From Candidatus Kapaibacterium sp. (GTDB taxonomy: Bacteria > Bacteroidota > Ignavibacteria > Kapaibacteriales > Kapaibacteriaceae): 64,000 nucleotides of DNA. Where the stretch lies: contig JAURGP010000001.1 of the NCBI GenBank assembly GCA_030833725.1, positions 113,870 to 177,869 of the forward strand. The letters run 5' to 3'. Both the position numbers and the translations under genes were made by a program. This document shows positions 22,182 through 36,240 of the stretch, piece after piece (within the stretch, counting starts at the first letter, position 1; each line of letters begins with the position of its first letter). Below the pieces are notes generated by a model. The model was given only the letters and a program-made list of their open reading frames with translations, was not told the DNA's origin and did not search any database.

Positions 22182-22231
22182 ATGGCGATGGTGTCAGATG
22201 GTATCATAGGAGTGGTAGCATAGGAGTGGTA

Positions 22232-22600
22232 ATGGTAACACGATTCATCTTTTCGGCACTACTCCTTGCTGCGGGGGTAGCTCATCTGTTTCTACCCCAG
22301 TTCTTTATTGCCTACTACCCATCCTACCTCCCCTGGCCGGAGCAGATGGTACTGCTTTCAGGGATTGTGGAGCTCCTCCTGGCCACGTTGCTGTGGATTC
22401 GTGCAGTCGAGCGACCCACGTGGCTGGCGATCTCGCTCCTGATGGCCGTGTACACGCTGGTTCACGTGTACGTGATCACGGACTATGGCACGATCCAGCA
22501 TCCTGATCCCGCGCTTCCGTTATGGCTGGCCTGGGTTCGGCTGCCGATGCAAGGTGTGCTGATTGGATGGGCGTGGAAAGAGTACCGACGCCGGGCGTGA
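22232..22600 (+). CDS. small hypothetical membrane protein
   Basis: 122 aa, 3-4 TM helices. Preceded by a duplicated Shine-Dalgarno-like block. Stop codon lies inside a palindromic repeat copy. Confidence 0.4.
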   Translation: MVTRFIFSALLLAAGVAHLFLPQFFIAYYPSYLPWPEQMVLLSGIVELLLATLLWIRAVERPTWLAISLLMAVYTLVHVYVITDYGTIQHPDPALPLWLAWVRLPMQGVLIGWAWKEYRRRA

Positions 22601-22628
22601 CGCCGGGAAAAGGTTTTCCCGGCGTCGT
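22585..22628. repeat. palindromic GC-rich element copy A: CGACGCCGGGcgtGACGCCGGGAAAAGGTTTTCCCGGCGTCGTC
   Basis: Read directly from the sequence. Perfect 28-bp hairpin core plus a third direct half-site. The stop codon TGA of the upstream membrane-protein gene lies inside the element. Confidence 0.8.
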
Positions 22629-22649
22629 CTCGTCCGCATCTTTGTGGCT

Positions 22650-23063
22650 ATGACAACCTCGAACTTCTCTCCGCGATCCGGTCTGGCCGCAGTGCTGAAA
22701 ATTGCAGCCGTGTACAACCTGCTTTGGGGTGCCTGGCAGATCCTCGCCCCCAGTAGTTTTTTCCATGTCATGGGCATGGAGCCTGTGAACTACCTGATGA
22801 TCTGGCAGGGCTTAGGCATGGTGATCGGCCTGTATGGTATCGCCTACTACTGGGCATCGTTCAACTACATCCGGCACTGGCCAATTGTTGCGATCGGCCT
22901 GATGGGGAAGGTGTTTGGCCCGATAGGGTTCATCTACAACATTGCACTGGGCACAGCCCCCTACAGCTTCGGCTACACCTTGATCCCCAACGATCTGATT
23001 TGGTGGATTCCGTTCACCATGATGTTGCTGGACGCGAAAAAGGCTGGCTTCCCTCTTCGATAA
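22650..23063 (+). CDS. small hypothetical membrane protein
   Basis: 137 aa, multi-TM, Trp/Tyr-rich. Starts at MTTSNFSPRSG, just downstream of repeat copy A. Confidence 0.4.
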   Translation: MTTSNFSPRSGLAAVLKIAAVYNLLWGAWQILAPSSFFHVMGMEPVNYLMIWQGLGMVIGLYGIAYYWASFNYIRHWPIVAIGLMGKVFGPIGFIYNIALGTAPYSFGYTLIPNDLIWWIPFTMMLLDAKKAGFPLR

Positions 23064-23196
23064 TCCAACTATTCATACAGGAAGAAGACATCGTTCACGA
23101 CGTGATCTCCACCAGCGATGGTGGTTCTGTACTGACCGGGTATACGATGTCGAACGATGGCGACTTCACTGGCATGAACAGAGTGTTTCCGTGGAC

Positions 23197-23236
23197 GTTG
23201 CCGGGAAAAGGTTTTCCCGGCAACTCTCCCGGCAAC
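23197..23236. repeat. palindromic element copy B with compensatory arm variant: GTTGCCGGGAAAAGGTTTTCCCGGCAACtctCCCGGCAAC
   Basis: Same architecture as copy A, but all three arms read GTTGCC/GGCAAC instead of GACGCC/GGCGTC. Lies between convergent genes (membrane protein and histone H1-like gene). Confidence 0.75.
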
Positions 23237-23243
23237 AGTCTGT

Positions 23244-23417
23244 TTACTTCTCTTTATCGGCAGCAATCGACGCCTTGTTGTACGGCGTGATCAGCTTCTT
23301 GATCCCATTTGCTGCCTTACGAGCCTGCGCTGCACCCTTTTTGGTGGTGGCGTTGTGACCCTCTTGAAACTGAGCGAACAGCGTCATGATCTGCTCGTAG
23401 ATCTCTTGCTTTGTCAT
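23244..23417 (-). CDS. histone H1-like small DNA-binding protein (Bacteroidota Hc1/H1-like family)
   Basis: Hand-translated 57-aa ORF not in the supplied track: MTKQEIYEQIMTLFAQFQEGHNATTKKGAAQARKAANGIKKLITPYNKASIAADKEK. Lys/Ala-rich and similar in pattern to Bacteroidota histone H1-like proteins (..EGHIKTGNQSAGTRARK..IKVLAQELRK). Confidence 0.6.
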   Translation of the reverse strand: MTKQEIYEQIMTLFAQFQEGHNATTKKGAAQARKAANGIKKLITPYNKASIAADKEK

Positions 23418-23483
23418 TCCTGAACCCTATGTGAAGGAGTGAAAACGTGCAGCTCAGCGCTGCGTAACATTCGATTATACAAC

Positions 23484-23510
23484 CGAAAATCGCGAAAATC
23501 ACGAAAATCG
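23484..23510. promoter_or_regulatory. three tandem 9-bp repeats (CGAAAATCG CGAAAATCA CGAAAATCG) upstream of the histone H1-like gene
   Basis: Read directly from the sequence. Located 67-93 bp upstream of the minus-strand ATG at 23417. Confidence 0.35.
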
Positions 23511-23536
23511 ACTGTACCGCGTTCCATCCACCACAA

Positions 23537-24250
23537 TCAAAGTGGAACCTCGATCAGGACAGCAGAAGTTTGTTGGTGTGCATGGATCTGTATGCTCCCC
23601 ACATCGGAGAGCCCCAGGGCGTCTCTCCGCTGAAGTGTTTGCTCGTGTACCGTGAGCTCTCCCTCAATCACGAAGATGAAGATACCAGTGCCTTCACTCC
23701 TAGGAATGTACTCGCGTGTATGGTCGGATTCCAGGGACACCATCGACAGCCACGCTGTTTGATGGATCCACAGTGGAGCGTCCCCATCCTTGGGACCAAC
23801 CACCAACTCTATGCTGTTTTGTGGAACGATGATTCGACGCTGGTCGTACCGCGGCTGAACGTTCGGCGTGTCAGGAATGATCCAGATCTGCAGGAACTCA
23901 ACAGGTTCAGTGTCTGATCCGTTGAACTCTGAGTGCGTAATACCTCTGCCAGCTGACATCACCTGTACATCACCGGGGTGGAGTGCTTCTGCATGGCCCA
24001 TGCTATCTCGATGCATGAGCACACCTTTCAACGGAATCGAGATGATCTCCATGTTGCGATGCGGATGCTCACCGAAGCCCGAGCCCCCTTCCACCACATC
24101 GTCATTGAAGACGCGAAGCATCCCGAAGTTCATGCGCTCGGGATGCATGTAGCTTCCAAAGCTGAACACATGGTGAGTATCAAGCCAGCCGTAGTTGGCA
24201 TGACCACGCGTATCGGCTTTGAACAGGGTTGTATTCATTGCAGTTTTCAC
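23537..24250 (-). CDS. pirin family protein (bicupin)
   Basis: 237 aa. Conserved pirin N-terminal motifs (HPHRNMEIISIPL, GDVQVMSAGRGITHSE). Confidence 0.85.
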   Translation of the reverse strand: MKTAMNTTLFKADTRGHANYGWLDTHHVFSFGSYMHPERMNFGMLRVFNDDVVEGGSGFGEHPHRNMEIISIPLKGVLMHRDSMGHAEALHPGDVQVMSAGRGITHSEFNGSDTEPVEFLQIWIIPDTPNVQPRYDQRRIIVPQNSIELVVGPKDGDAPLWIHQTAWLSMVSLESDHTREYIPRSEGTGIFIFVIEGELTVHEQTLQRRDALGLSDVGSIQIHAHQQTSAVLIEVPL

Positions 24251-24283
24251 AGATTGTATGGGGCCTTACACCGGGATAATCTC

Positions 24284-24898
24284 ATGTTTCGTAACCGACA
24301 CGATGCAGCACAACAACTGATTCCACATCTGGAACAGTACAAGCATAACGATGTTGTGGTTGTAGCCGTTCCTCGCGGGGCGGTACCCATGGCCGCAGAT
24401 CTTGCCAACCACTTCGGATGGCCACTGGGCGTAGTGTTCGTCAAGAAGCTTGGGCATCCATTCAACCACGAGTACGCTATTGGTGCTGTCGGCCTTGATG
24501 ATGTGTTTCTGGATCCCGGCCATACTGATGTGACTCCACGCGACCTGCAGGACGCTGTTGCTGAAGCCCAGGTTCTACTTCGTAGGAGACGTGCGATGTT
24601 TCTCGGCGTGCGACCAGATGTTCCATTGCGTGGCCGAACGGTTCTTCTTGTGGACGATGGAATTGCCACAGGAGCCACCGTGCGTGCGAGCATTGCTGTT
24701 CTGCGGAAGCAGGATCCAGTAGCCATCATTGTTGTGGCGCCTGTTGGATCAACTTCGGCCATTGAGGAGTTACTGTCATCTGCTGACGATGTGGTGGTTG
24801 TGCACTCAGATCCCAACTTTCGTGCAGTGGGAGAGTACTATGATGATTTTTCGGAAGTCACGGACGAAGATGTTGTCCAGGTTTTGCAGCAGATTTGA
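24284..24898 (+). CDS. phosphoribosyltransferase family protein (type I PRT)
   Basis: Start at MFRNRHD. PRPP-binding motif VLLVDDGIATGAT. Confidence 0.75.
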   Translation: MFRNRHDAAQQLIPHLEQYKHNDVVVVAVPRGAVPMAADLANHFGWPLGVVFVKKLGHPFNHEYAIGAVGLDDVFLDPGHTDVTPRDLQDAVAEAQVLLRRRRAMFLGVRPDVPLRGRTVLLVDDGIATGATVRASIAVLRKQDPVAIIVVAPVGSTSAIEELLSSADDVVVVHSDPNFRAVGEYYDDFSEVTDEDVVQVLQQI

Positions 24899-24944
24899 TA
24901 CACGTTCTAGTCACGCATTCGAAAAACTGTCACCAAGCATTCCC

Positions 24945-25661
24945 ATGAGCCGTCAATCATACATCGGGTTCACTCTATTGCTCTGTATGTTCTTGAGTAG
25001 CTGCACGAGTGACGTCGCTCCAGTACCTGAACAAACGAATGAGGAGAGATATCTCGCTGCAATCACGGATGCTATGGTTGCAGACGATGCAGAACGCTCA
25101 TCGAATCTGATTGCACTCCGCGAAGATAATCCTAGTACGGTTTGGAAGTCCTTTGGTTCGGAGCGGCGCGTGTTGGTGACCACATGGACATCCTGGGACA
25201 CGACCTACTCTGTCGGACAGATAGCCGCTGCGAAGTATGATATGTGGGTAACGGCTGCACCAGAACTTCATTCGTGGTGGAAAACGCGCTACGACAATCG
25301 CACGGATACAGCTCTTCGCCTCGAGCAGCTACTTGGTCTGTCACCTGGTAGAAACAAGACATCGTTTCTGTCTGTATGGGTTCGACCACAGGATGTGTTC
25401 CGACCTGCCGGAGATCCAGAGATCGATGATGCCTCGGCTGGACCCGAGCTTGCCGCTGATGTTGATTCAGCGTACCGCGTATGGTTCAACGCCAGCATAA
25501 TCTATTCGTACTACCCAAGATCAGCTCCCTGGACACGCCTAGGCTACACGTATGATTGGAACGGCCAGTATGGTGAGCAAGGGCTCAGTGAGTTCATCGT
25601 CCGCAAGGGGTCCGAGATCATTGTCGAGTCGGTAACTCCTACGGCTGAATACCTTCGATAG
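24945..25661 (+). CDS. hypothetical lipoprotein
   Basis: Start at MSRQSYIGFTLLLCMFLSSCTSD (signal peptide plus lipobox). No recognisable domain. Confidence 0.5.
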   Translation: MSRQSYIGFTLLLCMFLSSCTSDVAPVPEQTNEERYLAAITDAMVADDAERSSNLIALREDNPSTVWKSFGSERRVLVTTWTSWDTTYSVGQIAAAKYDMWVTAAPELHSWWKTRYDNRTDTALRLEQLLGLSPGRNKTSFLSVWVRPQDVFRPAGDPEIDDASAGPELAADVDSAYRVWFNASIIYSYYPRSAPWTRLGYTYDWNGQYGEQGLSEFIVRKGSEIIVESVTPTAEYLR

Positions 25662-25679
25662 GTCTGCTACAGCATTCGC

Positions 25680-26093
25680 TTACTTCACATACTGCTGCAC
25701 CACGTAGATGCAGGTGTCCTCGATGTACGTTACACCGGCTTCAGCGCAACGGCGAGCCCCATGCTGACTGGTGATTCCAAGCTGTAACCAGATGCAGTGA
25801 ATGTCACCCCGCTGGGCCCGACGTTCCAACGCTGCCTCGATGATCGCGTCCGTATCAGAGGATGGTCGAAACACATTGAGAATGTCGATGTCCATCCCTA
25901 CATCGTTGATGGTTGCGACCACCGGAATTGAGCCTACACTCGGTACGGCTGAGGGGTTGATACCCACGACAGAATAGCCCCACTGCGGCAGAAGCTGAGG
26001 TATGTCGTGCGCGGATTTACCGGGATTCTTTGACAAACCAACCACGGCAATGTTCCGGGCGTTACGGAGGGTTGTGATTGCAAGATCTAGCAT
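25680..26093 (-). CDS. CoA-binding domain protein (YccU/YneT-like)
   Basis: 137 aa. NIAVVGLSKNPGKSAHD Rossmann-like CoA-binding motif. Confidence 0.8.
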   Translation of the reverse strand: MLDLAITTLRNARNIAVVGLSKNPGKSAHDIPQLLPQWGYSVVGINPSAVPSVGSIPVVATINDVGMDIDILNVFRPSSDTDAIIEAALERRAQRGDIHCIWLQLGITSQHGARRCAEAGVTYIEDTCIYVVQQYVK

Positions 26094-26125
26094 GAGTGCA
26101 AACTACATAGGACTCTCATAGGCCT

Positions 26126-26168
26126 CGACGCCGGGAGTGACGCCGGGAAAAGGTTTTCCCGGCGTCGT
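26126..26168. repeat. palindromic element copy C: CGACGCCGGGagtGACGCCGGGAAAAGGTTTTCCCGGCGTCGT
   Basis: Identical to copy A except for one spacer base. Lies in the divergent promoter region between the CoA-binding gene and crtY. Confidence 0.8.
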
Positions 26169-26176
26169 GCTCAATC

Positions 26177-27289
26177 GTGGGCATCCCGGAGCTATCTTCC
26201 CCAATGGACAGCCCCCTCAATCAACGACTCACCTTTCTAGGCGGCGGTGTAGCGGCAAGTATCTATACGATTATTGCCCGCGCTGTGTGGAGCTCTTCGG
26301 AACTGACCGTTTCGGTCATCGATCCCACTGAACAGCCCCCAGAGAGAACGCTGTGTGTGTGGGGTGCACCGAGTCCACTTCTCGAAGACGCGGTTGTAGC
26401 GCAGTGGTCGAAGCTCTGTTTTGGCTACGGTACAGACACCATCACTGTTGACCTTGACACCTGGTCCTACCGTCAGTATACGGCATCGTCGCTTCGACAG
26501 CTAGCTGAGCGAATGGGTCCCATTCACCGCATTACGGCCATGGCTGATGATCCAAGTGACGAATCTGTACTCCACCTTGACAGTCGTCCACACCAGCCTG
26601 TGTCGCAGCCTGCTTCGGTTGAGTTGCTGCAGCATTTTCATGGTCGGAGAATTCGCACATCGAAGGACATCTTTCAGCCAGACACAGCCGTGATGATGGA
26701 CTTTCGTACGGACCAATCAGACGGCATCTGTTTTCTGTACGTGCTTCCGTATAGCAGCACCGAGGCCTTGGTAGAGTGTACGGCCTTTAGTCCGGCGGTG
26801 TGGGACGTGGATCAGTACGCCCATCGCTTGGACACCTACATCGAGCTCGAGCTTGGATGCTCGGACTACGAGGTTCTGGCTACTGAGACAGGTGTGATCC
26901 CGATGAATGATCGTAGTGTCGATCGTAATCGTGGACGCAACTGGATTGTGATTGGAAGTGCTGGAGCACTCACCAAACCAACCACGGGATACATGGTGGC
27001 ACGCTGTCTTCGGGACGCTACATCCCTCTTTGTAGATGCGAAGCGCTCTGGACGCATGTCTGTACCTAGTGCGCCTCCATCTCGATTCGCGTGGTACGAC
27101 AAACTCCTCCTCAGGATCATGCGAGATGAGCCTGAGGTTGTTCCGCTCATCTTGTGGACGCTATTCAAGCGAAACCCTATTCATCGCATTCTGTCGTTTC
27201 TTGACGAGCAAACGTCACTGCGTCAGGAGGTCCTTCTGTTTCTCAGGTTACCATGGATGCCCTTTCTTCGAGCTATCGTTCGGCAGTAG
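26177..27289 (+). CDS. crtY: lycopene cyclase (CrtY/CrtL family)
   Basis: 370 aa. N-terminal dinucleotide-binding-like region. Conserved lycopene cyclase motif ICFLYVLPYS. Overlaps the downstream Blh-like gene. Confidence 0.7.
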   Translation: MGIPELSSPMDSPLNQRLTFLGGGVAASIYTIIARAVWSSSELTVSVIDPTEQPPERTLCVWGAPSPLLEDAVVAQWSKLCFGYGTDTITVDLDTWSYRQYTASSLRQLAERMGPIHRITAMADDPSDESVLHLDSRPHQPVSQPASVELLQHFHGRRIRTSKDIFQPDTAVMMDFRTDQSDGICFLYVLPYSSTEALVECTAFSPAVWDVDQYAHRLDTYIELELGCSDYEVLATETGVIPMNDRSVDRNRGRNWIVIGSAGALTKPTTGYMVARCLRDATSLFVDAKRSGRMSVPSAPPSRFAWYDKLLLRIMRDEPEVVPLILWTLFKRNPIHRILSFLDEQTSLRQEVLLFLRLPWMPFLRAIVRQ

Positions 27290-28116
27290 TCTACGTCGGT
27301 TCGGCCCTGATCCTCGTGGCCCTGACAACGCTTCTGCCATCGGCCGTAGTGGTGTTGTCCGTGCTGCTGATTTCACTGGGTGGTGTTCCTCATGGCGCGG
27401 TGGATCTCCATCTCACACTTCCAGGTGCACAGAGGTGGCGTGAGTTGGCTGTCTACCTGGTAAGCATGAGCGCTGTTCTACTAGGATGGTACCTGTCGTC
27501 ACCAGTGATGCTGGCGTTCTTTCTTGTGAACTCAGCGTGGCACTTCGGTGATTGCGACTTGTCCACACCACATGCGGCTAAGCCGGTACTTGCACTCGTG
27601 TATGGACTTGCCGTGTTGTTGGTTGTGATCAACCCTCTAGATCCATCGATCTACTGGATTCTGGAGGATTTGATTGGCCAAGCTGACCTGAGTTCCTTCG
27701 TTACCATCATCGAGCCGTACCTCGTACCGATGCGGATAATCGCAATGGTTCTTGTTGTGGCTGTGCCGGTGAGTACGAACCACACTACACGTATCGCAGC
27801 TCTTGTTCGCGGGATACTGATTGTTGGTATGGGGCTGATGGCACCGTCTCTGGTAGCGTTTACGTGGTACTTCGTGGTCATCCACTCATGGACGAGTTTA
27901 TCGCGGTTACGATTCTACGTGTCGGCTAACGAGCCGTGGACATGGCGCAGACTGATCGTGGCTGCTGCACCGCTCTCTGTGGTTACCTATGCAGGGGTCG
28001 TGATCGGTTTCCTGCTGCTGCCCATCTCGTCTCTCACGGCACTTCTCTTCGTTGCACTGAGTGCGCTCACCCTACCCCATAGCCGACTGTTCAGCCGGGT
28101 GTATGCGTCGAGGTGA
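27253..28116 (+). CDS. blh: Brp/Blh family beta-carotene 15,15'-dioxygenase-like membrane protein (retinal synthesis)
   Basis: 287 aa, 7-8 TM. Conserved His motifs GGVPHGAVDL and NSAWHFGDCD resemble Brp/Blh HGAxD and HFG boxes. Translationally coupled to crtY, which is the canonical pairing. Confidence 0.55.
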   Translation: MDALSSSYRSAVVYVGSALILVALTTLLPSAVVVLSVLLISLGGVPHGAVDLHLTLPGAQRWRELAVYLVSMSAVLLGWYLSSPVMLAFFLVNSAWHFGDCDLSTPHAAKPVLALVYGLAVLLVVINPLDPSIYWILEDLIGQADLSSFVTIIEPYLVPMRIIAMVLVVAVPVSTNHTTRIAALVRGILIVGMGLMAPSLVAFTWYFVVIHSWTSLSRLRFYVSANEPWTWRRLIVAAAPLSVVTYAGVVIGFLLLPISSLTALLFVALSALTLPHSRLFSRVYASR

Positions 28117-28147
28117 GCGATCACCTCCCGTGTGTGCATGGACACAG

Positions 28148-28843
28148 TTAGTCTTTGATACAGCGAACGGAAAAGCCGTTACCCATGTAGAATGCTCCCC
28201 GGTACACCTTCGAGGTATTCCGACCCATGTACCTCTTCCACGCAAGATTGGCGTTGCTGACGGTGGAACTCCACCAGTGCCCTAACTCACCCGCGCTGTA
28301 GAACAAGCCATTGAAGTCCACAAATCCGCTAGGCAGTCCGTGGAACCCACTACTATTCGTGCCGTTTCCGTTACCCATCCAGCCTTGGGTACTCTTCATC
28401 TTGACACCTGCCTCGGCCTCGCCACCAAGGAAGCTGGTGAGCGCGGTCCATTCGTCATCGGTGGGAATGTGGTATCCCTCAGGGGCCAGCCCACGTGGGT
28501 CCGTCACAGCATACCAGTTGTACAGCTTTCCGTGCAGACGTCCATTCGCCGAGTTGTTATCGTAGTAGCACCAGGCTGGTGTTCCGTCGGTGGCGGCCTT
28601 TTCCCACTTCTCATACGTATCAGCGTGCGGAATGGAGTCGCCGTTGCGAAACAGGGCAACATCCAGGTTGGACGTCATCCATACCTGAGTTCCGATCGCA
28701 ACCTCGGAGATCGTCGGTACTTCCGGTTCTACGGGCGTGCTACTGGTGCATGCACTCACGAGTGTGATCGCAACCACTAGCCATAGCGCAACAGAAGAGT
28801 TCAGTTTGTTCACGAGACGTATCCTGAAGGGGTGAGGTAACAC
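28148..28843 (-). CDS. FISUMP-domain (Fibrobacter succinogenes major paralogous domain, TIGR02145) lipoprotein
   Basis: 231 aa. Lipobox LVSACTSS. FISUMP-like motifs (IGTQVWMTSNL, GKLYNWYA, GYHIPTDDEW, GLFYSAGELGHWWSST, SVRCIKD). Confidence 0.65.
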   Translation of the reverse strand: MLPHPFRIRLVNKLNSSVALWLVVAITLVSACTSSTPVEPEVPTISEVAIGTQVWMTSNLDVALFRNGDSIPHADTYEKWEKAATDGTPAWCYYDNNSANGRLHGKLYNWYAVTDPRGLAPEGYHIPTDDEWTALTSFLGGEAEAGVKMKSTQGWMGNGNGTNSSGFHGLPSGFVDFNGLFYSAGELGHWWSSTVSNANLAWKRYMGRNTSKVYRGAFYMGNGFSVRCIKD

Positions 28844-28904
28844 TTCAGTAAATGTACGGATTGATATCGTTTCGTTGTTGAAACGATACCATTGGGCACG
28901 GAGG

Positions 28905-29807
28905 TCATTCCCCCGTTAATGCAATGCGATCCTCGTACTTGTTGTAGATCACTTGGATGATGAGTCCGAACAACACTGCAGATATCACGAGGACATTGTT
29001 CAGCAGACCTTCCACATTAAAAGACAGCCGTATCAGGATCGTTGAGATAATGAAGCCAGAGTTACGAATAATCACGTGGAAGTAATCAGTGTAGAAGAAG
29101 GACACGAGAAGAAGAAGAACGTCAACAATCACTAGTAGTGTAAAGAACTCCTCAAAGAACACCCTGTTTACACCATGGAACGTCGAGGTGGCTGATGTAG
29201 GACTAGAGAACACATCCGTCAGCCAATGAACCAAGGAAACGGTCGCCAAAACAAACACAAGCGGTACTAGGGCCGTAGCGATCAGATTCTTGATCCTACC
29301 ATACGTCATCGTACCATCTTGAGTATGGTGTATTGCAGCAACTGCTGGCGTTCGTCGTCGACATAACGAAGAGAAGAGGTAGATGAGGAAGAATAGGATT
29401 AGTGTTGTGATAAGATCGTATGTGAACTGAAGGTCGTACTTGAGTGTGAACCAATCAGAGGTGATCTCAAGGTTTGCAAGGTCCTTGAAGAGCCGACGCA
29501 TGATGATCAGAAGGATGATCTCGTACTGCTTATTGATGTAGGTACTGAGAGACTTCGGGAGATAGAAAATCAGCAGGTATACTTCGTATACCAGGATGAA
29601 TGAAAACGGCGTGTAGAGTGCAGAAATCGGGTTGTTCAACAGATGTATCGTGGAGTCTAGTTTGACTACTCCGATCTGCACCAAACCGATCAGCAGCAAA
29701 TGAATAAGGAAGCTGGCGATAGCGATGATCAGAACCACACGCTCAATGCGCTCTCGCATCGCGGTTGAAAGCAATCCACCTGATTGATTACCTGGCGCCG
29801 GATACAT
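28905..29807 (-). CDS. hypothetical 8-TM membrane protein, anomalously low GC
   Basis: 300-aa ORF rich in I/L/F/Y/K/N. GC is visibly lower than in flanking genes. About 8 predicted TM helices. No recognisable family motif. Confidence 0.5.
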   Translation of the reverse strand: MYPAPGNQSGGLLSTAMRERIERVVLIIAIASFLIHLLLIGLVQIGVVKLDSTIHLLNNPISALYTPFSFILVYEVYLLIFYLPKSLSTYINKQYEIILLIIMRRLFKDLANLEITSDWFTLKYDLQFTYDLITTLILFFLIYLFSSLCRRRTPAVAAIHHTQDGTMTYGRIKNLIATALVPLVFVLATVSLVHWLTDVFSSPTSATSTFHGVNRVFFEEFFTLLVIVDVLLLLVSFFYTDYFHVIIRNSGFIISTILIRLSFNVEGLLNNVLVISAVLFGLIIQVIYNKYEDRIALTGE

Positions 29808-29878
29808 GAGTTAGCCTCTCATTGCAGGTGGTTCGATACGGACAGTGATCGAATCTAATGTTTTACGCCACCGAATGC

Positions 29879-29912
29879 CACGACGCCGGGAAAACCTTTT
29901 CCCGGCGTCGTC
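29879..29912. repeat. palindromic element copy D (opposite orientation, loop AAAACCTTTT): CACGACGCCGGGAAAACCTTTTCCCGGCGTCGTC
   Basis: Lies in the divergent region between the low-GC membrane gene and the VanZ-like gene. Confidence 0.8.
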
Positions 29913-30022
29913 CGTTATGTTCAATCCATGTGGTTCTGGATACCGTCTATCGTCCGTGGACATGGAGTGTCCGATGTGCCGACGCGCATCTGGCTGACTC
30001 CTTCACGAAGATCACTTCCGAT

Positions 30023-30250
30023 ATGGGTTTGTCTGCATTGATGGTTCTCTTTGAGGGCCGACGGTGGTGGAGCAGTCAGATCTCTAGTTGGCTTACCGTG
30101 CTGGTGCCCGTCCTGAGCATGGTGATCTACGAGCTGGTCCAGACCGTTCTTCCGTGGGGCCGGTTCGATCCTTGGGATGTGGCTTGGACCTTTGCGGGTG
30201 GTGGGATAGCCCTCATCGTGAAGCGACGCTGGGAAGCTCCGGTGTGGTAA
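30023..30250 (+). CDS. VanZ-like family protein (short, possibly truncated)
   Basis: C-terminal motif RFDPWDVAWTFAGGGIALIV resembles the VanZ FDxxDxxxNxxGxxxG motif. Upstream part of the ORF is occupied by a palindromic repeat copy. Confidence 0.35.
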   Translation: MGLSALMVLFEGRRWWSSQISSWLTVLVPVLSMVIYELVQTVLPWGRFDPWDVAWTFAGGGIALIVKRRWEAPVW

Positions 30251-30275
30251 TTTCCGCTCTCATTTTTCACACGTT

Positions 30276-31055
30276 TTGAAAGCGTTCATGAAACGTTTTG
30301 TTGTCGCGTGGTCTATCGCCATGCTGGTAAGTGCTGCCAGTGTATCTCTGGTTGCTGCTAGTGATTCGACAAGCCCCTTTCACGGATTCAACATCGGCAT
30401 GCACGGAGGCTACGGCTCTGCCCAGCGTGTTGGTGTAAACAGTTGGTGGTTTGAAGGTCTTGACATCGAGAGAGGATGGGCTCAGTTCTCACAGAGTGGT
30501 GGTCAGATTGGCGTACACATGGGGTACAACTACGTTCTTCCTTCCGGGCTCCTGTTTGGGGCTCGTGTAAGTTTTGCTGCCTCAAACATTCACGGCATGG
30601 ATATCGACAGCGTTCGTGACGGAGCAGATGAGTTCACGTCGGATGGAAGAAACAGGCAGGAGAGTATCACAATGGCACAGGCTCGCATCGGCTATGCCAC
30701 AGACACGTGGTCGGTGCATGCTATTGGTGGTTACACGATAACTACGTCGCGGAATGAGGGCTCGTTCACGTCATTGACACCGGCAGCTGTTCCGCCAGGT
30801 GGTGAAAGAATCTATGGATCCTGGAGCGGCGTCGAAATGCAATCGGGTTTGGTTGCGGGCGTTGGAGCCGGCTTCATGCTGACAGATCGAGTTTCCGTCA
30901 GCTTGGACTATACCTTGCTGTTGTTCGATAAGGTGACCAATGGCCTTCCTGGATCCGCCGGTATCTTGGGATCCGGCTCAGTACCAACGTATCTCACGTC
31001 CGTTGTTGAGTCTGAAATGCACCTGTTCACGGTTGGTGTTTCGTATCGCCTCTAA
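30276..31055 (+). CDS. outer-membrane beta-barrel protein (OmpA-like barrel)
   Basis: 259 aa. Signal peptide. Alternating amphipathic beta-strands, Gly/aromatic-rich. C-terminal VGVSYRL. Confidence 0.6.
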   Translation: MKAFMKRFVVAWSIAMLVSAASVSLVAASDSTSPFHGFNIGMHGGYGSAQRVGVNSWWFEGLDIERGWAQFSQSGGQIGVHMGYNYVLPSGLLFGARVSFAASNIHGMDIDSVRDGADEFTSDGRNRQESITMAQARIGYATDTWSVHAIGGYTITTSRNEGSFTSLTPAAVPPGGERIYGSWSGVEMQSGLVAGVGAGFMLTDRVSVSLDYTLLLFDKVTNGLPGSAGILGSGSVPTYLTSVVESEMHLFTVGVSYRL

Positions 31056-31075
31056 AGGTTTTCCCGGCGTTGTCC
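31055..31075. repeat. truncated half-copy E of the palindromic element: AAAGGTTTTCCCGGCGTTGTC
   Basis: Begins at the stop codon of the OMP gene. Only the right arm is present. Confidence 0.55.
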
Positions 31076-31215
31076 AACCAACGTCGTCTGATCGTATACC
31101 AAAAGCCCCTTACAGGATCGTCCTGCAAGGGGCTTTGTCGTATGTGGTTCGGGAAGATATCTGTGCGGTCAGGGAGGCTGGTGCTCATCGTGCAGATTGA
31201 AGTGCATCAAGGAAA

Positions 31216-31605
31216 TCAAGCGCCTTTTGATTGAAACAATCCGATCCTATTGCCTTCGCTGTCTTCGAACTCGGCAACGCAACCCCATTCAGTATCCGAT
31301 GCTATCTCGAGCACGATCCGGCCTCCGTTGGCCATCACACGTTGAAGTGTGTCTCCAATATCTACGGTTCGCAAGTAGAGAATCACGCCTTCATGCGTCG
31401 GCCGATAGACATCTCCTTTGCACAATGCACCCGTGATTCCAGTAAGCCGCTCGTCAAATGGAAACAAAGCCATCTCGTAGTGATCGATAACGGTTCGATG
31501 GAACGGAACTCCCAACACCGCCCCGTAGAATTCAACAGCACGTTCAAGGTCTGTGACTGGAATCTCGAAGTAAACCGCAGGATTGAATTTCGAGGGTATC
31601 TTCAT
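31216..31605 (-). CDS. VOC (glyoxalase/bleomycin-resistance) family protein
   Basis: 129 aa. YFEIPVTDLERAVEFY and GGRIV motifs of the VOC fold. Confidence 0.8.
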   Translation of the reverse strand: MKIPSKFNPAVYFEIPVTDLERAVEFYGAVLGVPFHRTVIDHYEMALFPFDERLTGITGALCKGDVYRPTHEGVILYLRTVDIGDTLQRVMANGGRIVLEIASDTEWGCVAEFEDSEGNRIGLFQSKGA

Positions 31606-31895
31606 TATTCGAAGTTAATTAGGTTCACCGCACACGTGGTGACGGCATTGTGGGCGACGATTCGTAGAACGAATCGGGACTGACAAGACCCGAACAACCC
31701 CACTTCACTGAGGCTCTGAACCCGATGGACGGGTCAAAAAGTGTAGTCTTAAAAGTGTAGTCTTTTTTCTGGTTTCCGTCCTCGTAAGTCCCTGTAAAAC
31801 AAGGAAACGGGTAGAAACGGTCAGACCCCTTGAAACACGGGGTTTCAAAGGGTCTAACACTGTTGTGATTCAACCACTTGGGGTTGAAGTTCCTG

Positions 31896-31968
<73 letters not shown>

Positions 31969-32092
31969 GTGTCTGGTTCTCTACAGCGTAAGCGCCGTAG
32001 GGCAACAAATATACAGAACCGGCGAAAGGTGACAAACGTCATAGTGTGGGTTCGCGGATGGCCATAGGTTGCCGAACACGGTAATGGGCATG

Positions 32093-32122
32093 ATTCACCG
32101 TAGTTCACCGGAAATCACCGGA
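32093..32122 (+). promoter_or_regulatory. three phased TCACCG(G) direct repeats immediately upstream of lipoprotein gene start
   Basis: aTTCACCGtagTTCACCGGaaaTCACCGGatacaacc-ATG. Spacing 10-11 bp. Ends 8 bp before the ATG at 32130. Confidence 0.3.
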
Positions 32123-32129
32123 TACAACC

Positions 32130-32909
32130 ATGGAGTACACAATGAGAAGATATCTGAACGTGCTAGTCGGCACTGCACTGCTGCTGGCAACGACAAGCTG
32201 CGGCTTGATCGAGTCCTCGACAGAGGGACCCAATGAAATGGGAGGTGATGGCAACATCGACCTCATAGAAGTAGTAAACAGCTGGGGCGTGAGCTTCAAC
32301 ACCGAGACCTTTGGCCCTGGTTTCAGTGGTGTTGAGGAGGACATCAAGCTGGTGAGTAACGAGAATGGCCTGATCACGTTAGATGCTACGCTCACCTTCG
32401 ACACCGTTGCTACCAAGGCCTTAGATACCTTGCTGGGAGTCACGGAGTTGCCGTACTCTGTGAAGATGGGCATTCTAGATGCGTATCTGGCGCGATATGG
32501 TGCGAGCATCGATACCACAGATAAAGGATCGATGAAGCTACGGGCAGTACTGAAGGCAAAGGTCACGGACCGCGGGATCCAAGAGTATTTCAGCTCCGGC
32601 GGTAACACATCACGCCCCTTCACCATTGTGAAGTATGATGCTGGTATCGGAGATTCCTACGAGTTCACCCTTGATGACGGCACCAAGAAGAAGCGCACCG
32701 TTATGTCACGTTCCACCACCGACGACTACCCAGTAGCATTCTGGCTGCTGAAAGTGATCAAGGTAAAGGAGGAAACAGTAGATGCAGAAGATCCACTGCT
32801 GGACGAACTCTGGTACATCACCAATCACAAGTACGGACTTGTGGGTATCGAGGGTACGCTAAAGAGCGGGAAGCCGCTCAAGATTACCGTGTTCCCACCC
32901 ACACTGTAG
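32130..32909 (+). CDS. hypothetical lipoprotein
   Basis: 259 aa. Signal peptide plus lipobox (LLLATTSCG). No recognisable domain. Confidence 0.5.
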   Translation: MEYTMRRYLNVLVGTALLLATTSCGLIESSTEGPNEMGGDGNIDLIEVVNSWGVSFNTETFGPGFSGVEEDIKLVSNENGLITLDATLTFDTVATKALDTLLGVTELPYSVKMGILDAYLARYGASIDTTDKGSMKLRAVLKAKVTDRGIQEYFSSGGNTSRPFTIVKYDAGIGDSYEFTLDDGTKKKRTVMSRSTTDDYPVAFWLLKVIKVKEETVDAEDPLLDELWYITNHKYGLVGIEGTLKSGKPLKITVFPPTL

Positions 32910-32926
32910 GGGGCTTTGATACCGTG

Positions 32927-33862
32927 CTAGTCCCACGGTGTCCAGGCGAAGGCCACGGTGGGCACCACAAATGGGCCCTGCACAATCGTAAAACCGAAAT
33001 CTGATGCCACAGCACGGCTCGTAAGCCTCAATCCAAGGTAGAGAGCCGTGTTGGCTGGCCGAGTCAGGTCAGCATTCCAGAGTTCACCCACAACGTGAAG
33101 GTTGCGCATCTCAGGAAAGCGTGTGTCGAGTCCGATACCAACGCCAAAGGTTCCATTTGGTAACGGGAATGCTGATGGACCAAAGAAGTTGCCGGCCTTG
33201 ATCGTGTAGTTGTCCTTACCTGCCACCTTGGCAAACATCATGAGTGTTGCCTGCGTGCGCTTACCGGTGAACGTAGCAACACCATATACGTGGCCTAGAA
33301 AATTCACATCATTCAGCCAGCCCCCGTTGATACCAACGGCATAGTACTGTTCGCCCCCTTCAACTAATCCATGTGGAGCTGTGTGAACCGTGAATTTCGC
33401 ATTCACCAGCGAGACCTGCTCGCTCCAGGCAATTCCGGGCACCAGTGTGCGGCCGGCCGTGATGCTGAGCCAGTTGCCTACTCCTACGCCGGCATAGGGC
33501 AGAACACCCTCTATAAGTGAGATGAAGGCATCATTCCCAATGGGAATGGCCGTTGGCAGAATGTATCCTCGATGTCGGTGGCGGTAGTCTGCTTCACTTG
33601 AGTAGATCGAGTGAATCTCCTTGGCATAGATTTTCGCCCTACCAACAACTGATGCAACACGCACATAGGCGCCAGTGTCATCTTCGGAGAACTCAACGAT
33701 GGCACCACTGAGAATATCGCCGTTTTCCAACCGGACAACGTAGATCTCGTCATCAATGAAGGACATACGGAGGAGTTCTTCATTTGTCATAGCTGCTGCA
33801 TTCACATGGAGCAACCAGAAGAGTGCGATGAGGCAAGCAGTAACGGTTCGTGTTGTCTTCAT
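32927..33862 (-). CDS. hypothetical secreted/outer-membrane protein
   Basis: 311 aa. Signal peptide (MKTTRTVTACLIALFWLLHVNAAA). Beta-rich alternating pattern. Confidence 0.5.
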   Translation of the reverse strand: MKTTRTVTACLIALFWLLHVNAAAMTNEELLRMSFIDDEIYVVRLENGDILSGAIVEFSEDDTGAYVRVASVVGRAKIYAKEIHSIYSSEADYRHRHRGYILPTAIPIGNDAFISLIEGVLPYAGVGVGNWLSITAGRTLVPGIAWSEQVSLVNAKFTVHTAPHGLVEGGEQYYAVGINGGWLNDVNFLGHVYGVATFTGKRTQATLMMFAKVAGKDNYTIKAGNFFGPSAFPLPNGTFGVGIGLDTRFPEMRNLHVVGELWNADLTRPANTALYLGLRLTSRAVASDFGFTIVQGPFVVPTVAFAWTPWD

Positions 33863-34965
33863 AACTCACTGAGGGCCAACTGGCCGCAGGCAGCATCGAT
33901 ATCCAGCCCCGATGAACTGCGAATCAGTACGTGCGCACCTTCTTCCCGCAGTCGATCAAGAAACCATTGGAAGCGGTCAGGGGGCGTAGGACGCAATGTT
34001 GCAGCGAAGCCAGATGGATGAGTGAAGTCGATCTCATGAAATGGGATCACGTTAATCTTGGTTGGAAACCTCCGAGCCATGCGTGCCAGACGGACAACGT
34101 CCTGCTCGGTGTCGTTCAGTCCGTCGAAGAGAATGTATTCGAAGGTGATACTCTTGCGAGTGGCGCGATAGTATTGCTCCAATGCATCCATCACCACCGG
34201 CAAAGGCCAGCGTTTGGCGATGGGCATCAATTGCTCGCGCACCCCCTGCGTGGTAGCATGAAGACTCAAGGCTAGCTTGATGATCTGGCCTTCTTCGGCC
34301 AACCGCAGGATTCCCGGTACTACTCCGGCAGTACTCAGCGTTGTTCGTCGAGGAGCAACCATGTTTGTGCGCTGATCATTGAAGATCGTGGTGGCACGCA
34401 TCACAGCATCGTAGTTGTTCATGGGTTCACCCATGCCCATGTAGACGATATTGGTGATTGGTTTCTCGGAGTGTCGCTGAGCTTGCAGAAACTGATCGAC
34501 GATCTCGCCGCTCGACAGATTACGTTTCAAGTTGAGTGTGGCCGTTGCACAAAACTCACAGCCGAGATTACATCCCACTTGGGTAGAGATGCAGAGTGTA
34601 CGTCGGCGAGGCTGTCCGTCGGCTTCTACCAGTTCACTGGGAATCAGAACAGACTCGATCGTAGCACCATCCCAAAGCGAGAACAAGAACTTCTTCGTGC
34701 CGTCGGAACTCTCTTGAACCGTTTGTAACTCAACACTCTGCGTTCGAAACTCCGTACTCAGCTGTTGCTGCAGATCAGCTGGAAGCACATGCATGGCATG
34801 CATGTCGTTGATACGCTGCACGTACAGGGCGTCGTACACCTGGCGTGCACGGTACTTCCTGATGCCGCGCTCCTCAAAGAGCGTTTCGAGTGCAGCTACA
34901 GGCCAACCCTTGAGTTCTGTAGGGCCCTTGACGCGGTCTCGCTGTGGAATAGAGGGAAGGGACAT
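33859..34965 (-). CDS. rlmN: 23S rRNA (adenine2503-C2)-methyltransferase RlmN (radical SAM)
   Basis: 368 aa. Radical SAM CxxxCxxC (CNLGCEFC) and conserved RlmN/Cfr motifs (YMGMGEP, second Cys region). Confidence 0.85.
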   Translation of the reverse strand: MSLPSIPQRDRVKGPTELKGWPVAALETLFEERGIRKYRARQVYDALYVQRINDMHAMHVLPADLQQQLSTEFRTQSVELQTVQESSDGTKKFLFSLWDGATIESVLIPSELVEADGQPRRRTLCISTQVGCNLGCEFCATATLNLKRNLSSGEIVDQFLQAQRHSEKPITNIVYMGMGEPMNNYDAVMRATTIFNDQRTNMVAPRRTTLSTAGVVPGILRLAEEGQIIKLALSLHATTQGVREQLMPIAKRWPLPVVMDALEQYYRATRKSITFEYILFDGLNDTEQDVVRLARMARRFPTKINVIPFHEIDFTHPSGFAATLRPTPPDRFQWFLDRLREEGAHVLIRSSSGLDIDAACGQLALSEL

Positions 34966-34995
34966 ATCACAAACATCGGGAAGTTGCCGCGATGA

Positions 34996-36075
34996 TCAGT
35001 CTGACAGAAGTGCGACGGCCTCTGCAGCTACGGTACTACCGAGTGCTACCCCCATGCCATTGCAACCGAACACTCTCATCGTGTGTGGTTGTATGTGCTC
35101 TATCAGCGGTTGCTTGTCGGGTCGAAATCCCATGATTCCCGACCATCGGTATTCGATACTGAATACCTGGCCTGGAAGAATGGTGGTGCGGAGCAGATCT
35201 TCTAGGTAGTGCTGAATCACATCGGTTGTTCCAAACTCAGTTGTTTCCTCTTCGGCGAAGGCAAGGTTTCTTCCACCGCCCAGCAGGACGCGATCACCCA
35301 CGTTTCGGAAGTACACGTACCCCTCGTCCATATGGAACGAACCACGCAACGGCAAGCCCCTTACCGGTGATGTCACCAGAATCTGACCTCGTCCAGGAGT
35401 GATGTCGGTGGATGGTCCCAATGGAAACGCATTTGTTGCAATCACCACCTTGCGCGCCTCGATGCGACCATTGTTCGTGGTAATGTGTGCATGAGTATCG
35501 GCGGATTGTACATCCCGCGCTTCTGTGATCTGAAAAGTGATGCCAACATCCTGGGCAATCGTCCAGAGCCGTTGCACCAGAAGCCCACTATTGATCGTTC
35601 CCTCGAAAGGTGTGCGGACCATAGCCTGGACGTTAGAGAAACCCAGCTGGTCGCAGAGGTGATCGGCGCGCTCAAACATGGTGTGCTCAAACACCGGAAG
35701 GAGGAGTTCATTCACCTCGTCCAAACGCTCGAGTGCTGGATGGTTCGTGGTAAAGATTTCGTGTCCACCATTCTCCTCGAATCCGATGGCATCGTCTCCG
35801 CAGCGCTCTCGCAGCCGCTGCAGCCCTGCCCATCGTCGCTGAACCAGATCTCGTGCACGGTCGGCCCCCATCAGGTTGATGTCGTAGGCGATCTCGCTCA
35901 GCGAACCAATGCAGGCAAAACCTGCATTCCGCATACTCGCCCCTGCCGGTGGCGCTGTCCTCTCCAGAACAAGGACGGCGTGGGACGGATGGCGCTGCTG
36001 GTACTCGATTGCTGCGGAGGTTCCGATGATACCGCCACCAATCACCACCAGATCGTACGTGCCGGGAACCACGCC
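34996..36075 (-). CDS. FAD-dependent oxidoreductase (DAO family)
   Basis: GxGxxG motif YDLVVIGGGIIGTSAA sits right at the N-terminus. No ATG is available there; a probable GTG start at about 36075 lies inside a palindromic repeat copy. The ORF as listed extends to 36159 through the repeat. Confidence 0.7.
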   Translation of the reverse strand, partial: GVVPGTYDLVVIGGGIIGTSAAIEYQQRHPSHAVLVLERTAPPAGASMRNAGFACIGSLSEIAYDINLMGADRARDLVQRRWAGLQRLRERCGDDAIGFEENGGHEIFTTNHPALERLDEVNELLLPVFEHTMFERADHLCDQLGFSNVQAMVRTPFEGTINSGLLVQRLWTIAQDVGITFQITEARDVQSADTHAHITTNNGRIEARKVVIATNAFPLGPSTDITPGRGQILVTSPVRGLPLRGSFHMDEGYVYFRNVGDRVLLGGGRNLAFAEEETTEFGTTDVIQHYLEDLLRTTILPGQVFSIEYRWSGIMGFRPDKQPLIEHIQPHTMRVFGCNGMGVALGSTVAAEAVALLSD

Positions 36076-36108
36076 GGGAAAACCTTTTCCCGGCGTCGTT
36101 CCCGGCAT
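36058..36108. repeat. palindromic element copy F, nested double hairpin: GTGCCGGGAACCACGCCGGGAAAACCTTTTCCCGGCGTCGTTCCCGGCA
   Basis: Inner stem ACGCCGGG/CCCGGCGT and outer stem GCCGGGAAC/GTTCCCGGC. Overlaps the 5' end and probable GTG start of the FAD oxidoreductase. Confidence 0.75.
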
Positions 36109-36240
36109 CGGCCCCACCTCCTGCCAAACCGTAGCCTCAATGCTAATATTGTTTACCATTTTCCCCTCCTAGTTCATTCTTCCTGTAACTTGAATGGAAA
36201 GCGAGGGTTCTTGCCCACGTACGCAATCATTGTTGTGCGA

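Follow-up and report, generated by a model that had tools for sequence, protein, structure and literature searches.

A palindromic repeat family with a probable cognate RAYT transposase in strain-variable islands of Candidatus Kapaibacteriota

What is the small GC-rich palindrome that recurs along one part of a Candidatus Kapaibacterium sp. contig, and what put it there? The locus is a 64,000-nt stretch of DNA, here called the window (GenBank assembly GCA_030833725.1, contig JAURGP010000001.1, positions 113,870 to 177,869), in which a 28-bp palindrome occurs five times in full and once as a half copy, the copies being lettered A to F from left to right (Table 1). We conclude, at a probability of roughly 0.85, that the copies are a repetitive extragenic palindromic (REP) family of this Candidatus Kapaibacteriota bacterium, partnered with a REP-associated tyrosine transposase (RAYT) of the HUH/Y1 type. 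A stable hairpin, copies with unique flanks, a RAYT gene flanked by the palindrome and a syntenic orthologue of that gene in a sister species are the main marks of a REP/RAYT system, and they were found here. The family is unusual for its density (about one copy per gene), its modular architecture of 12, 15 and 27 nt, and a copy carried in frame within the gene of a secreted enzyme.

The palindrome unit is GACGCCGGGAAAA(GG/CC)TTTTCCCGGCGTC. Its GG-centred 28-mer, GACGCCGGGAAAAGGTTTTCCCGGCGTC, is matched exactly at 22599-22626 and 26139-26166, and the CC-centred form exactly at 29882-29909 and with one mismatch at 36070-36097. Copy B is a GTTGCC...GGCAAC variant with its palindrome at 23197-23224 and a third arm at 23228-23236, and copy E is the half copy AAAGGTTTTCCCGGCGTTGTC. 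The basic half-site is NNNGCCGGGA; two of these, inverted around AAAA-SS-TTTT, form a palindrome of 28-34 nt, the 34-mer form being GACGACGCCGGGAAAACCTTTTCCCGGCGTCGTC. The foot of the element reads (G/C/A)AC-(G/C/A)AC-GCCGGG, with GACG/CGTC base-paired. Extra half-sites are spaced at 12-nt steps, and copies A, B, C and F carry them 12 bp outside the palindrome (GCCGGG half-sites at 22587, 26127, 36061 and 36101). Two palindromes 27 nt apart make doublets like REPINs (REP doublets forming hairpins); these were seen only outside the window, the window itself having only singlets, some with extra arms. The 28-mer had no match in shuffled sequence, and the 9-mer GACGCCGGG occurs nine times in the window against 0.65 expected from shuffles.

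Folded as single-stranded DNA, the window copies form hairpins of -15 to -28 kcal/mol, and a doublet forms one long hairpin of -36.2 kcal/mol; z-scores against shuffles run from -3.6 to -11.2 for window copies and doublet together, and from -3.6 to -7.0 for copies A, B, D and F. An earlier preliminary description of this DNA, made from its letters alone, had reported the palindrome cluster and the extra half-sites at several copies, and had suggested that the copies fold as hairpins. All of this was borne out. That description had also allowed that the copies might be parts of a larger duplicated segment; the flanks, which are unique to each copy, exclude this.

The transposase lies on a different contig. 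A 22-kb metagenome contig (L056/L069/L094; labels of this form denote the loci compared) bears the window-type element at 12 sites, and the sample series from which it comes also gives contigs 99.7% identical to the window. It encodes a RAYT of 197 amino acids (L056:5487-6080), which scored 82.5 bits against the NCBIfam model NF047646 REP_Tyr_transpos (cutoff 80), 53.1 bits against Pfam Y1_Tnp (cutoff 23) and 17.4 bits against the transpos_IS200 model (cutoff 55). Searched as a single sequence against solved structures, the protein gave no match. A profile of its homologues, searched against PDB, found E. coli TnpAREP as the best hit (4ER8, E 3.7e-13) and the ISDra2 and IS200/IS605 transposase structures more weakly (E 6.6e-5 to 5e-3). 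The HUH motif (NHFHLL) and the tyrosine of YIHLNP align with those of 4ER8, and none of 22 aligned homologues departs from H60, H62 or Y120.

The element stands on both sides of the RAYT gene in L056, L092, L093 and L095. In L093, a 68.5-kb contig, a singlet precedes the gene by 78 nt and a doublet follows it at 21 nt, the doublet being a singlet in L092. This contig displays a second island, with 13 element loci in the 16 kb round the RAYT and none in the 11.5 kb to the left. The sister species has an intact orthologue of 80% amino-acid identity at the same syntenic position, with adjoining elements. RAYT genes are typically single-copy, flanked by REPs or REPINs, and inherited vertically (PMC5581495, PMC3116915); a RAYT flanked by the same palindrome and syntenic in a sister species is the defining REP/RAYT arrangement (PMC5581495, PMC3116915, PMC2817692). 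Only one RAYT cluster was found among the loci examined.

Two observations connect this gene with the window. The metagenome-assembled genome (MAG) GCA_049443125.1 contains both a RAYT contig (L092) and L097, which is 99.3% identical to window positions 31044-34775, and four metagenome samples yielded RAYT and window-type contigs together. Neither the window open reading frames (ORFs) scanned nor gene tables covering the window with about 10 kb to its right and about 6 kb to its left showed an integrase, transposase or RAYT. The preliminary description had proposed a REP-like element, or a bacterial interspersed mosaic element (BIME) of REPs, and had named a search for a RAYT as a check. Such a RAYT exists, palindrome-flanked and in the same species and MAG, although outside the window, in the second island.

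The nearest relatives of the RAYT are in Ignavibacteria and Cyanobacteria, which fits the taxa reported for Group 4 RAYTs (PMC5581495). That group has low repeat counts, with about 14 copies of the flanking 16-mer (PMC5581495), and the element total in the present genome may be similarly low. Element loci number six in the window and 13 in L093, with more in L027 and L038, all with unique flanks.

The sister species came from a scan of species-representative genomes with the core 22-mer, which gave one contig 97-99% identical to the window and many matches in a single MAG, CAZBOW01 (L001-L017). Although CAZBOW01 is labelled Hyphomicrobiales, its element-bearing contigs are Bacteroidota-like and syntenic with the window at a median identity of 75%, and we therefore treat them as a sister species; judged from these sequences, the bin is probably a mixture or wrongly labelled, and it was unsuitable for genome-wide counts of the element. 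REPs terminate many of its contigs and scaffold gaps, so these repeats evidently break assemblies. Most of the single matches in the metagenome scan (human gut and others) were unrelated chance palindromes and were set aside.

Most elements of the sister species are doublets, in which a CC-centred palindrome is followed 27 nt on by a GG-centred one; doublets are also present in L093 and L083. The sister's elements further bear runs of a 12-nt unit, xxxGCCGGGAGx. Within arrays they stand at nearly all gene boundaries, among genes that include those for rhodopsin, an old yellow enzyme (OYE) oxidoreductase, a binding protein, a phosphodiesterase, a multicopper oxidase, a tyrosinase and a beta-lactamase-fold protein. 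Sites A, B and F, and most L093 sites, have an element at the orthologous position in both species. The preferred arm sequence differs by genome: the window species uses ACG/CGT, the sister TTG or ATG. Across the two species most element positions persist, whereas the sequences have a flavour of their own in each, a pattern of concerted evolution. Copy B, whose coherently altered arms had been put down to compensatory change, is explained by subfamily membership instead: it exactly matches the form GTTGCC...GGCAAC-TCT-CCCGGCAAC, including the CAAC-TCT-CCCGGCAAC third arm, which is the commonest form in the sister species (loci L004-L015).

One sister contig (contig 34; L013 6157-7096) carries a truncated IS3-type transposase gene (rve + HTH_21) directly beside two REP clusters, recalling the insertion sequence (IS) elements known to target REPs in Proteobacteria.

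Table 1. Copies of the palindrome, strain breakpoints and the tRNA gene in the window, with DNA folds and elements at orthologous sister-species sites
Feature	Position	Strand	Structure and setting	Hairpin, kcal/mol (z)	Sister-species element
REP copy A	22587..22629		One extra direct half-site (GACGCCGGG CGT), then 28-bp palindrome, GG centre; includes TGA stop (22598-22600) of MauE-like ORF 21863-22600	-18.4 (-3.6)	L009 3379-3451
REP copy B	23197..23236		GTTGCC/GGCAAC subfamily; palindrome and right-hand third arm; between convergent genes	-15.0 (-4.6)	L009 4702-4774
REP copy C	26127..26168		One extra left half-site and palindrome, GG centre; between divergent genes for CoA-binding protein (25680-26093, minus) and lycopene cyclase (26177-27289, plus)	-15.9	
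REP copy D	29879..29912		34-bp extended palindrome CACGACGCCGGGAAAACCTTTTCCCGGCGTCGTC, CC centre; between divergent genes	-18.4 (-6.3)	
REP copy E	31054..31074		Half copy; begins within TAA stop of OMP gene		
REP copy F	36058..36110		Nested four-arm palindrome, CC centre; inside DAO ORF 34996-36159 (minus)	-28.2 (-7.0)	L001 4234-4291; GG centre, ATG/CAT arms
Strain breakpoint	22259		No element		
Strain breakpoint	23184		13 nt from B		
Strain breakpoint	24889/24891		GNAT gene and doublet; empty site without element		
Strain breakpoint	29909/29924		At D; 2.9-kb CAT/ferredoxin/P450 module		
Strain breakpoint	30219/30224		No element		
Strain breakpoint	31055		At E		
tRNA-Phe gene	31895..31968	minus	Right edge of strain-variable region holding copies A-E (about 22259-31900); not part of element		

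The copies are not spread over the window. All lie within 22587-36110, the 9-mers CCGGGAAAA/TTTTCCCGG have 11 occurrences, all within 22.5-36.1 kb, and the element is absent from the remaining 50 kb or so as well as from contigs that extend the window by about 10 kb on the right and about 6 kb on the left. For six points placed uniformly on 64 kb, the chance of all falling within the observed span is about 0.002. Local confinement, as first claimed, therefore holds for the window but not for the genome, which has a second island elsewhere with at least 13 loci. The clustering is real: copies gather in strain-variable islands, of which there are at least two. It could arise from the tolerance of accessory regions for insertions, from local action of the RAYT, or from arrival of the elements with transferred genes.

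From left to right, the genes around the copies encode a MauE-like protein, pirin, a phosphoribosyltransferase, a CoA-binding protein, lycopene cyclase, Blh, a Fib_succ protein, a VanZ-like protein, an outer membrane protein (OMP), a glyoxalase, tRNA-Phe, RlmN and a DAO oxidoreductase. The tRNA-Phe gene was the sole match in a scan of the window at Rfam gathering thresholds. Synteny with the sister species restarts at 31894. Type IX secretion tails occur, and proteins identical to those of the window are labelled Candidatus Kapaibacteriota; the source is a Bacteroidota-related bacterium.

The five window copies other than F are intergenic or reach into an ORF no further than its stop codon, and the view that every copy is intergenic and at a gene boundary is essentially right for A-E. 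Copy F departs from it, lying in frame at the 5′ end of an annotated 387-aa DAO oxidoreductase ORF that reads MVNNISIEATVWQEVGP-MPGTTPGKGFPGVVPG-TYDLVVIGGG. The true start of that gene could be the ATG within copy F, which has GGAGG upstream, or the GTG just after it; the 17 DAO codons upstream of copy F are kept in the sister species, with an ambiguous codon-position pattern.

Another in-frame copy was seen in the second island, within a type I phosphodiesterase gene and between its conserved signal peptide and mature domain (L093 8781-8826; L014 387-459). In the window species it codes for 14 residues, TTPGKGFPGVTPGK, and in the sister for 23, TLPGKPFPGVMPGKGFPGNSPGK; the position of the start codon and the frame are kept in both, and each insert has the REP flavour of its own species. 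REPs within coding regions have been reported elsewhere (PMC3733652).

The islands also divide a pathway between them. The retinal genes for lycopene cyclase and Blh are in the window island (26177-28116), and the rhodopsin gene is beside the RAYT in the other (L093 7446-8234; L012 3947-4828), so that both halves of light harvesting lie in REP-dense regions.

Comparison with strains 99.2-99.9% identical to the window shows what varies. Window positions 22259-31900, beside tRNA-Phe, are a flexible island among strains of more than 99% identity, which differ there by the 2.9-kb CAT/ferredoxin/P450 module, by the GNAT gene and by a different left flank beyond 22259. A gene for a 265-aa beta-propeller protein also varies by strain, the window retaining a remnant of about 100 bp (23084-23183). 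Of the six strain breakpoints, four are at an element or no more than 15 bp from one. The elements vary as well. At D there are 0, 1 or about 2.7 extra 12-nt units by strain: L022, L083 and L088 have the module with one extra 12-bp half-site, and L090 has the same module end with about 2.7. Copy E is indeed a half copy in the window, as first described, but only through a strain-level deletion, since L018, L022 and L083 have the full palindrome with a third arm where the window has lost some 25-27 bp.

Some differences reach beyond the strain. A segment comprising the OMP beta-barrel gene and the last 18 or so codons of the VanZ-like gene (window 30195-31055; matching L013 7369-8000 and L004 1-283) matches the sister species at 96-98.6% identity, where the median background is 75%; the rest of the matching sister contig is about 74% identical to the window. 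At 30219/30224 the window has a 51-bp deletion relative to sister-species and strain sequences alike. This module of about 0.9 kb, ending exactly at REP E, looks like a recent transfer between species. The OYE gene with one element is present in the sister (L012) and absent in the window species (L093), with element-to-element borders. Finally, in L062 (Ga0129333_10075652, 894-936) the left flank of C is joined to the right flank of A over a 32-bp identical core, window position 26168 being connected directly to 22586 (26127-26168 and 22587-22629). This could be a circle or tandem duplication from recombination of C with A or, equally, an assembly chimera.

One may ask whether the arrays are a platform for gene shuffling, in which single genes bounded by REPs are excised, inserted or exchanged by REP-by-REP events. 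Hints of this are the breakpoints at elements, the indels of gene plus REP between strains and species, the OMP module near-identical across species and ending at REP E, the circle-like C-to-A junction and the conserved in-frame REP of the phosphodiesterase. The RAYT would move genes by single-strand 'peel and paste' between a pair of hairpins, or else recombination would act over repeats of 30-60 bp. We rate this extension of the REP explanation as doubtful. If it were true, flexible islands would be built in this way, with modules even moved between species, and the 12/15/27-nt design, with its multiples of three and a palindrome free of stop codons, would let copies persist in frame.

Several points weigh against assigning the copies to a REP/RAYT system. 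The unpaired GTAG tag was absent beside every copy checked, and CGTC, though present, is paired in the stem. The RAYT is outside the window, and its putative link to the window genome comes from MAG binning and sample co-occurrence. Some 20-25 element loci were seen, against more than 100 in classical REP families. In contrast to E. coli REPs, the copies favour 3′ ends no more than divergent promoter regions, and at least one is within coding sequence. Mobility of the element is putative, its signs being indirect: doublet or singlet state, half-site number and the half-deletion, each of which differs by strain.

Would another kind of palindrome account for the locus as well? Double-stranded recombination sites of a cassette system, integron attC or Xer/dif-like, through which a tyrosine recombinase moves single genes, would accommodate a good deal: the 28-mer parses as 11+6+11, with 11-bp arms around the spacer AAGGTT; the islands have about one element per gene; the breakpoints gather at or within 15 bp of elements (4/6); units of gene plus element vary (GNAT with its doublet, and OYE with its element between L012 and L093); and L062 joins C to A as an excised circle would. 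We nevertheless find this explanation very unlikely. The window, its extensions (about 10 kb right and about 6 kb left) and the annotated related loci, the RAYT island included, showed neither Phage_integrase nor any other recombinase. Genes between elements face both ways instead of being co-oriented, variable segments often have an element at one end only or at neither, and the empty GNAT site has none. The ends GACGCC/GGCGTC do not match the attC cores RYYYAAC/GTTRRRY, L062 is possibly a chimera assembled across its 32-bp identical core, and the element-flanked RAYT is a sufficient explanation by itself. The perfect palindrome and its clustering had also led us to consider parS-, Noc- or matS-like sites of chromosome organisation (a Noc site contains TTTCCCGGGAAA); these were dropped once the RAYT, and a second cluster elsewhere, had been found.

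Two further readings would place the copies in host regulation. The preliminary description had offered a palindrome bound by a dimeric protein as an alternative, and an operator of a dimeric transcription factor, one possibility being a light or oxidative-stress regulon, would suit C, D and F in their divergent or 5′ regions and neighbours that include crtY, blh, rhodopsin, oxidases and glyoxalases. Operators are normally degenerate, however, while this element is perfectly identical over 28-34 bp at many loci; it also occurs between convergent genes, over stop codons and inside coding sequence, its half-site number differs by strain, and it is tied to a RAYT. An operator is accordingly hardly credible. 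That the copies act only at the RNA level, as bidirectional terminators or mRNA-stabilising hairpins of the host and not as mobile DNA, is also highly improbable, even though the hairpins are stable in both orientations, A, B and E are at gene 3′ ends, and such roles are documented for E. coli REPs (PMC2817692). In a loose scan for a hairpin plus T-run only D passed, and such sites were not enriched (14 against 11.0 expected); a separate terminator-like hairpin with a T-rich tail (stem 31120-31133) adjoins E. The copies are thus a poor fit to canonical intrinsic terminators. Half of them (3/6) are in 5′ regions, and their near-identity and the flanking of the RAYT would be left unexplained. 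An RNA-level role could still coexist with the REP explanation. The hairpin near E, which has A- and T-run flanks (AAAAGCCCCTTACAGGATCGTCCTGCAAGGGGCTTTG; window 31095-31135), lies between the OMP and glyoxalase genes and is outside the REP family.

For the REP/RAYT system we propose, by analogy, a mechanism based on the biochemistry of E. coli TnpAREP and the IS200/IS605 transposases (PMC3479197, PMC8266576). On this model the RAYT would bind the hairpin where DNA is single-stranded at replication forks and would cut and rejoin beside it, copying or replacing elements and so keeping the population uniform. Replication slippage on the palindrome may yield the length variants of 12 and 27 nt, the arrays of arms and the flipped 2-nt centre. 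Elements would build up in gene-variable islands and serve there as short portable homologies where genes are gained or lost.

To our knowledge, work on REP/RAYT systems has been confined almost entirely to Proteobacteria. To that record the uncultured, Bacteroidota-related Candidatus Kapaibacteriota now contributes a clear REP family and the RAYT that goes with it. The case bears on what REPs do, in that copies occur in strain-variable islands and border genes that are gained and lost, with positions kept across species, sequences homogenised within a genome, and carriage in frame. It bears also on annotation, for the copies account for contig breaks in MAGs of this group and for several doubtful gene starts and stops. 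The element ends in CGTC and has a RAYT that it flanks, whereas a 2013 survey found no transposase for CGTC-tagged repeats (PMC3733652). A literature search for the exact element sequence found nothing.

Among known systems, integron attC sites and Acinetobacter pdif modules are alike in having perfect or imperfect palindromes that border single-gene modules whose presence varies by strain. They differ from the present case in that no integrase or Xer-type recombinase was found nearby here, genes are not co-oriented, and in many variable segments one end, or both, is without an element. Rickettsia palindromic elements (RPEs), which are 100-150 bp long, share the placement of a palindromic repeat in frame within an apparently functional gene, here the phosphodiesterase; our insert measures 42-69 nt, and its family is linked to a RAYT. 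The CGTC-tagged palindromic repeats of Di Nocera et al. (2013), known from Proteobacteria, Chlorobi, Bacteroidetes, Spirochaetes and Thermotogae (PMC3733652), come closer, with ends of the form ...CGTC / GACG..., hosts of the Fibrobacteres-Chlorobi-Bacteroidetes group, dimers and occasional location in coding regions. In those repeats the tag is unpaired, stems are 8-9 bp and start with A/T pairs, loops are 4-5 nt, and no transposase is associated, RPE-4 and RPE-6 being among the families so described (PMC3733652). Here CGTC is within a stem of 12-14 bp and the element flanks a RAYT, and we therefore do not file it under the CGTC-tagged family.

The fullest comparison is with the REPs and BIMEs of E. 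coli with TnpAREP and the REPINs of Pseudomonas fluorescens with their RAYTs. The present elements differ from those in lacking an unpaired GTAG, in their perfect palindrome with a 2-nt asymmetric centre and in their 12-nt half-site arms; they crowd into a few strain-variable islands, roughly one to a gene, instead of being dispersed over the genome, and are often in divergent promoters; and the host is a Bacteroidota-related candidate lineage whose RAYT is distant from E. coli TnpAREP. They are alike in being short GC-rich palindromes that form hairpins in single-stranded DNA, mostly intergenic and near-identical from copy to copy, and in occurring as singlets, inverted doublets and clusters. 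In all of them a Y1/HUH transposase gene is flanked by the repeat and syntenic in a sister species, element positions persist between species, and sequences are uniform within a genome.

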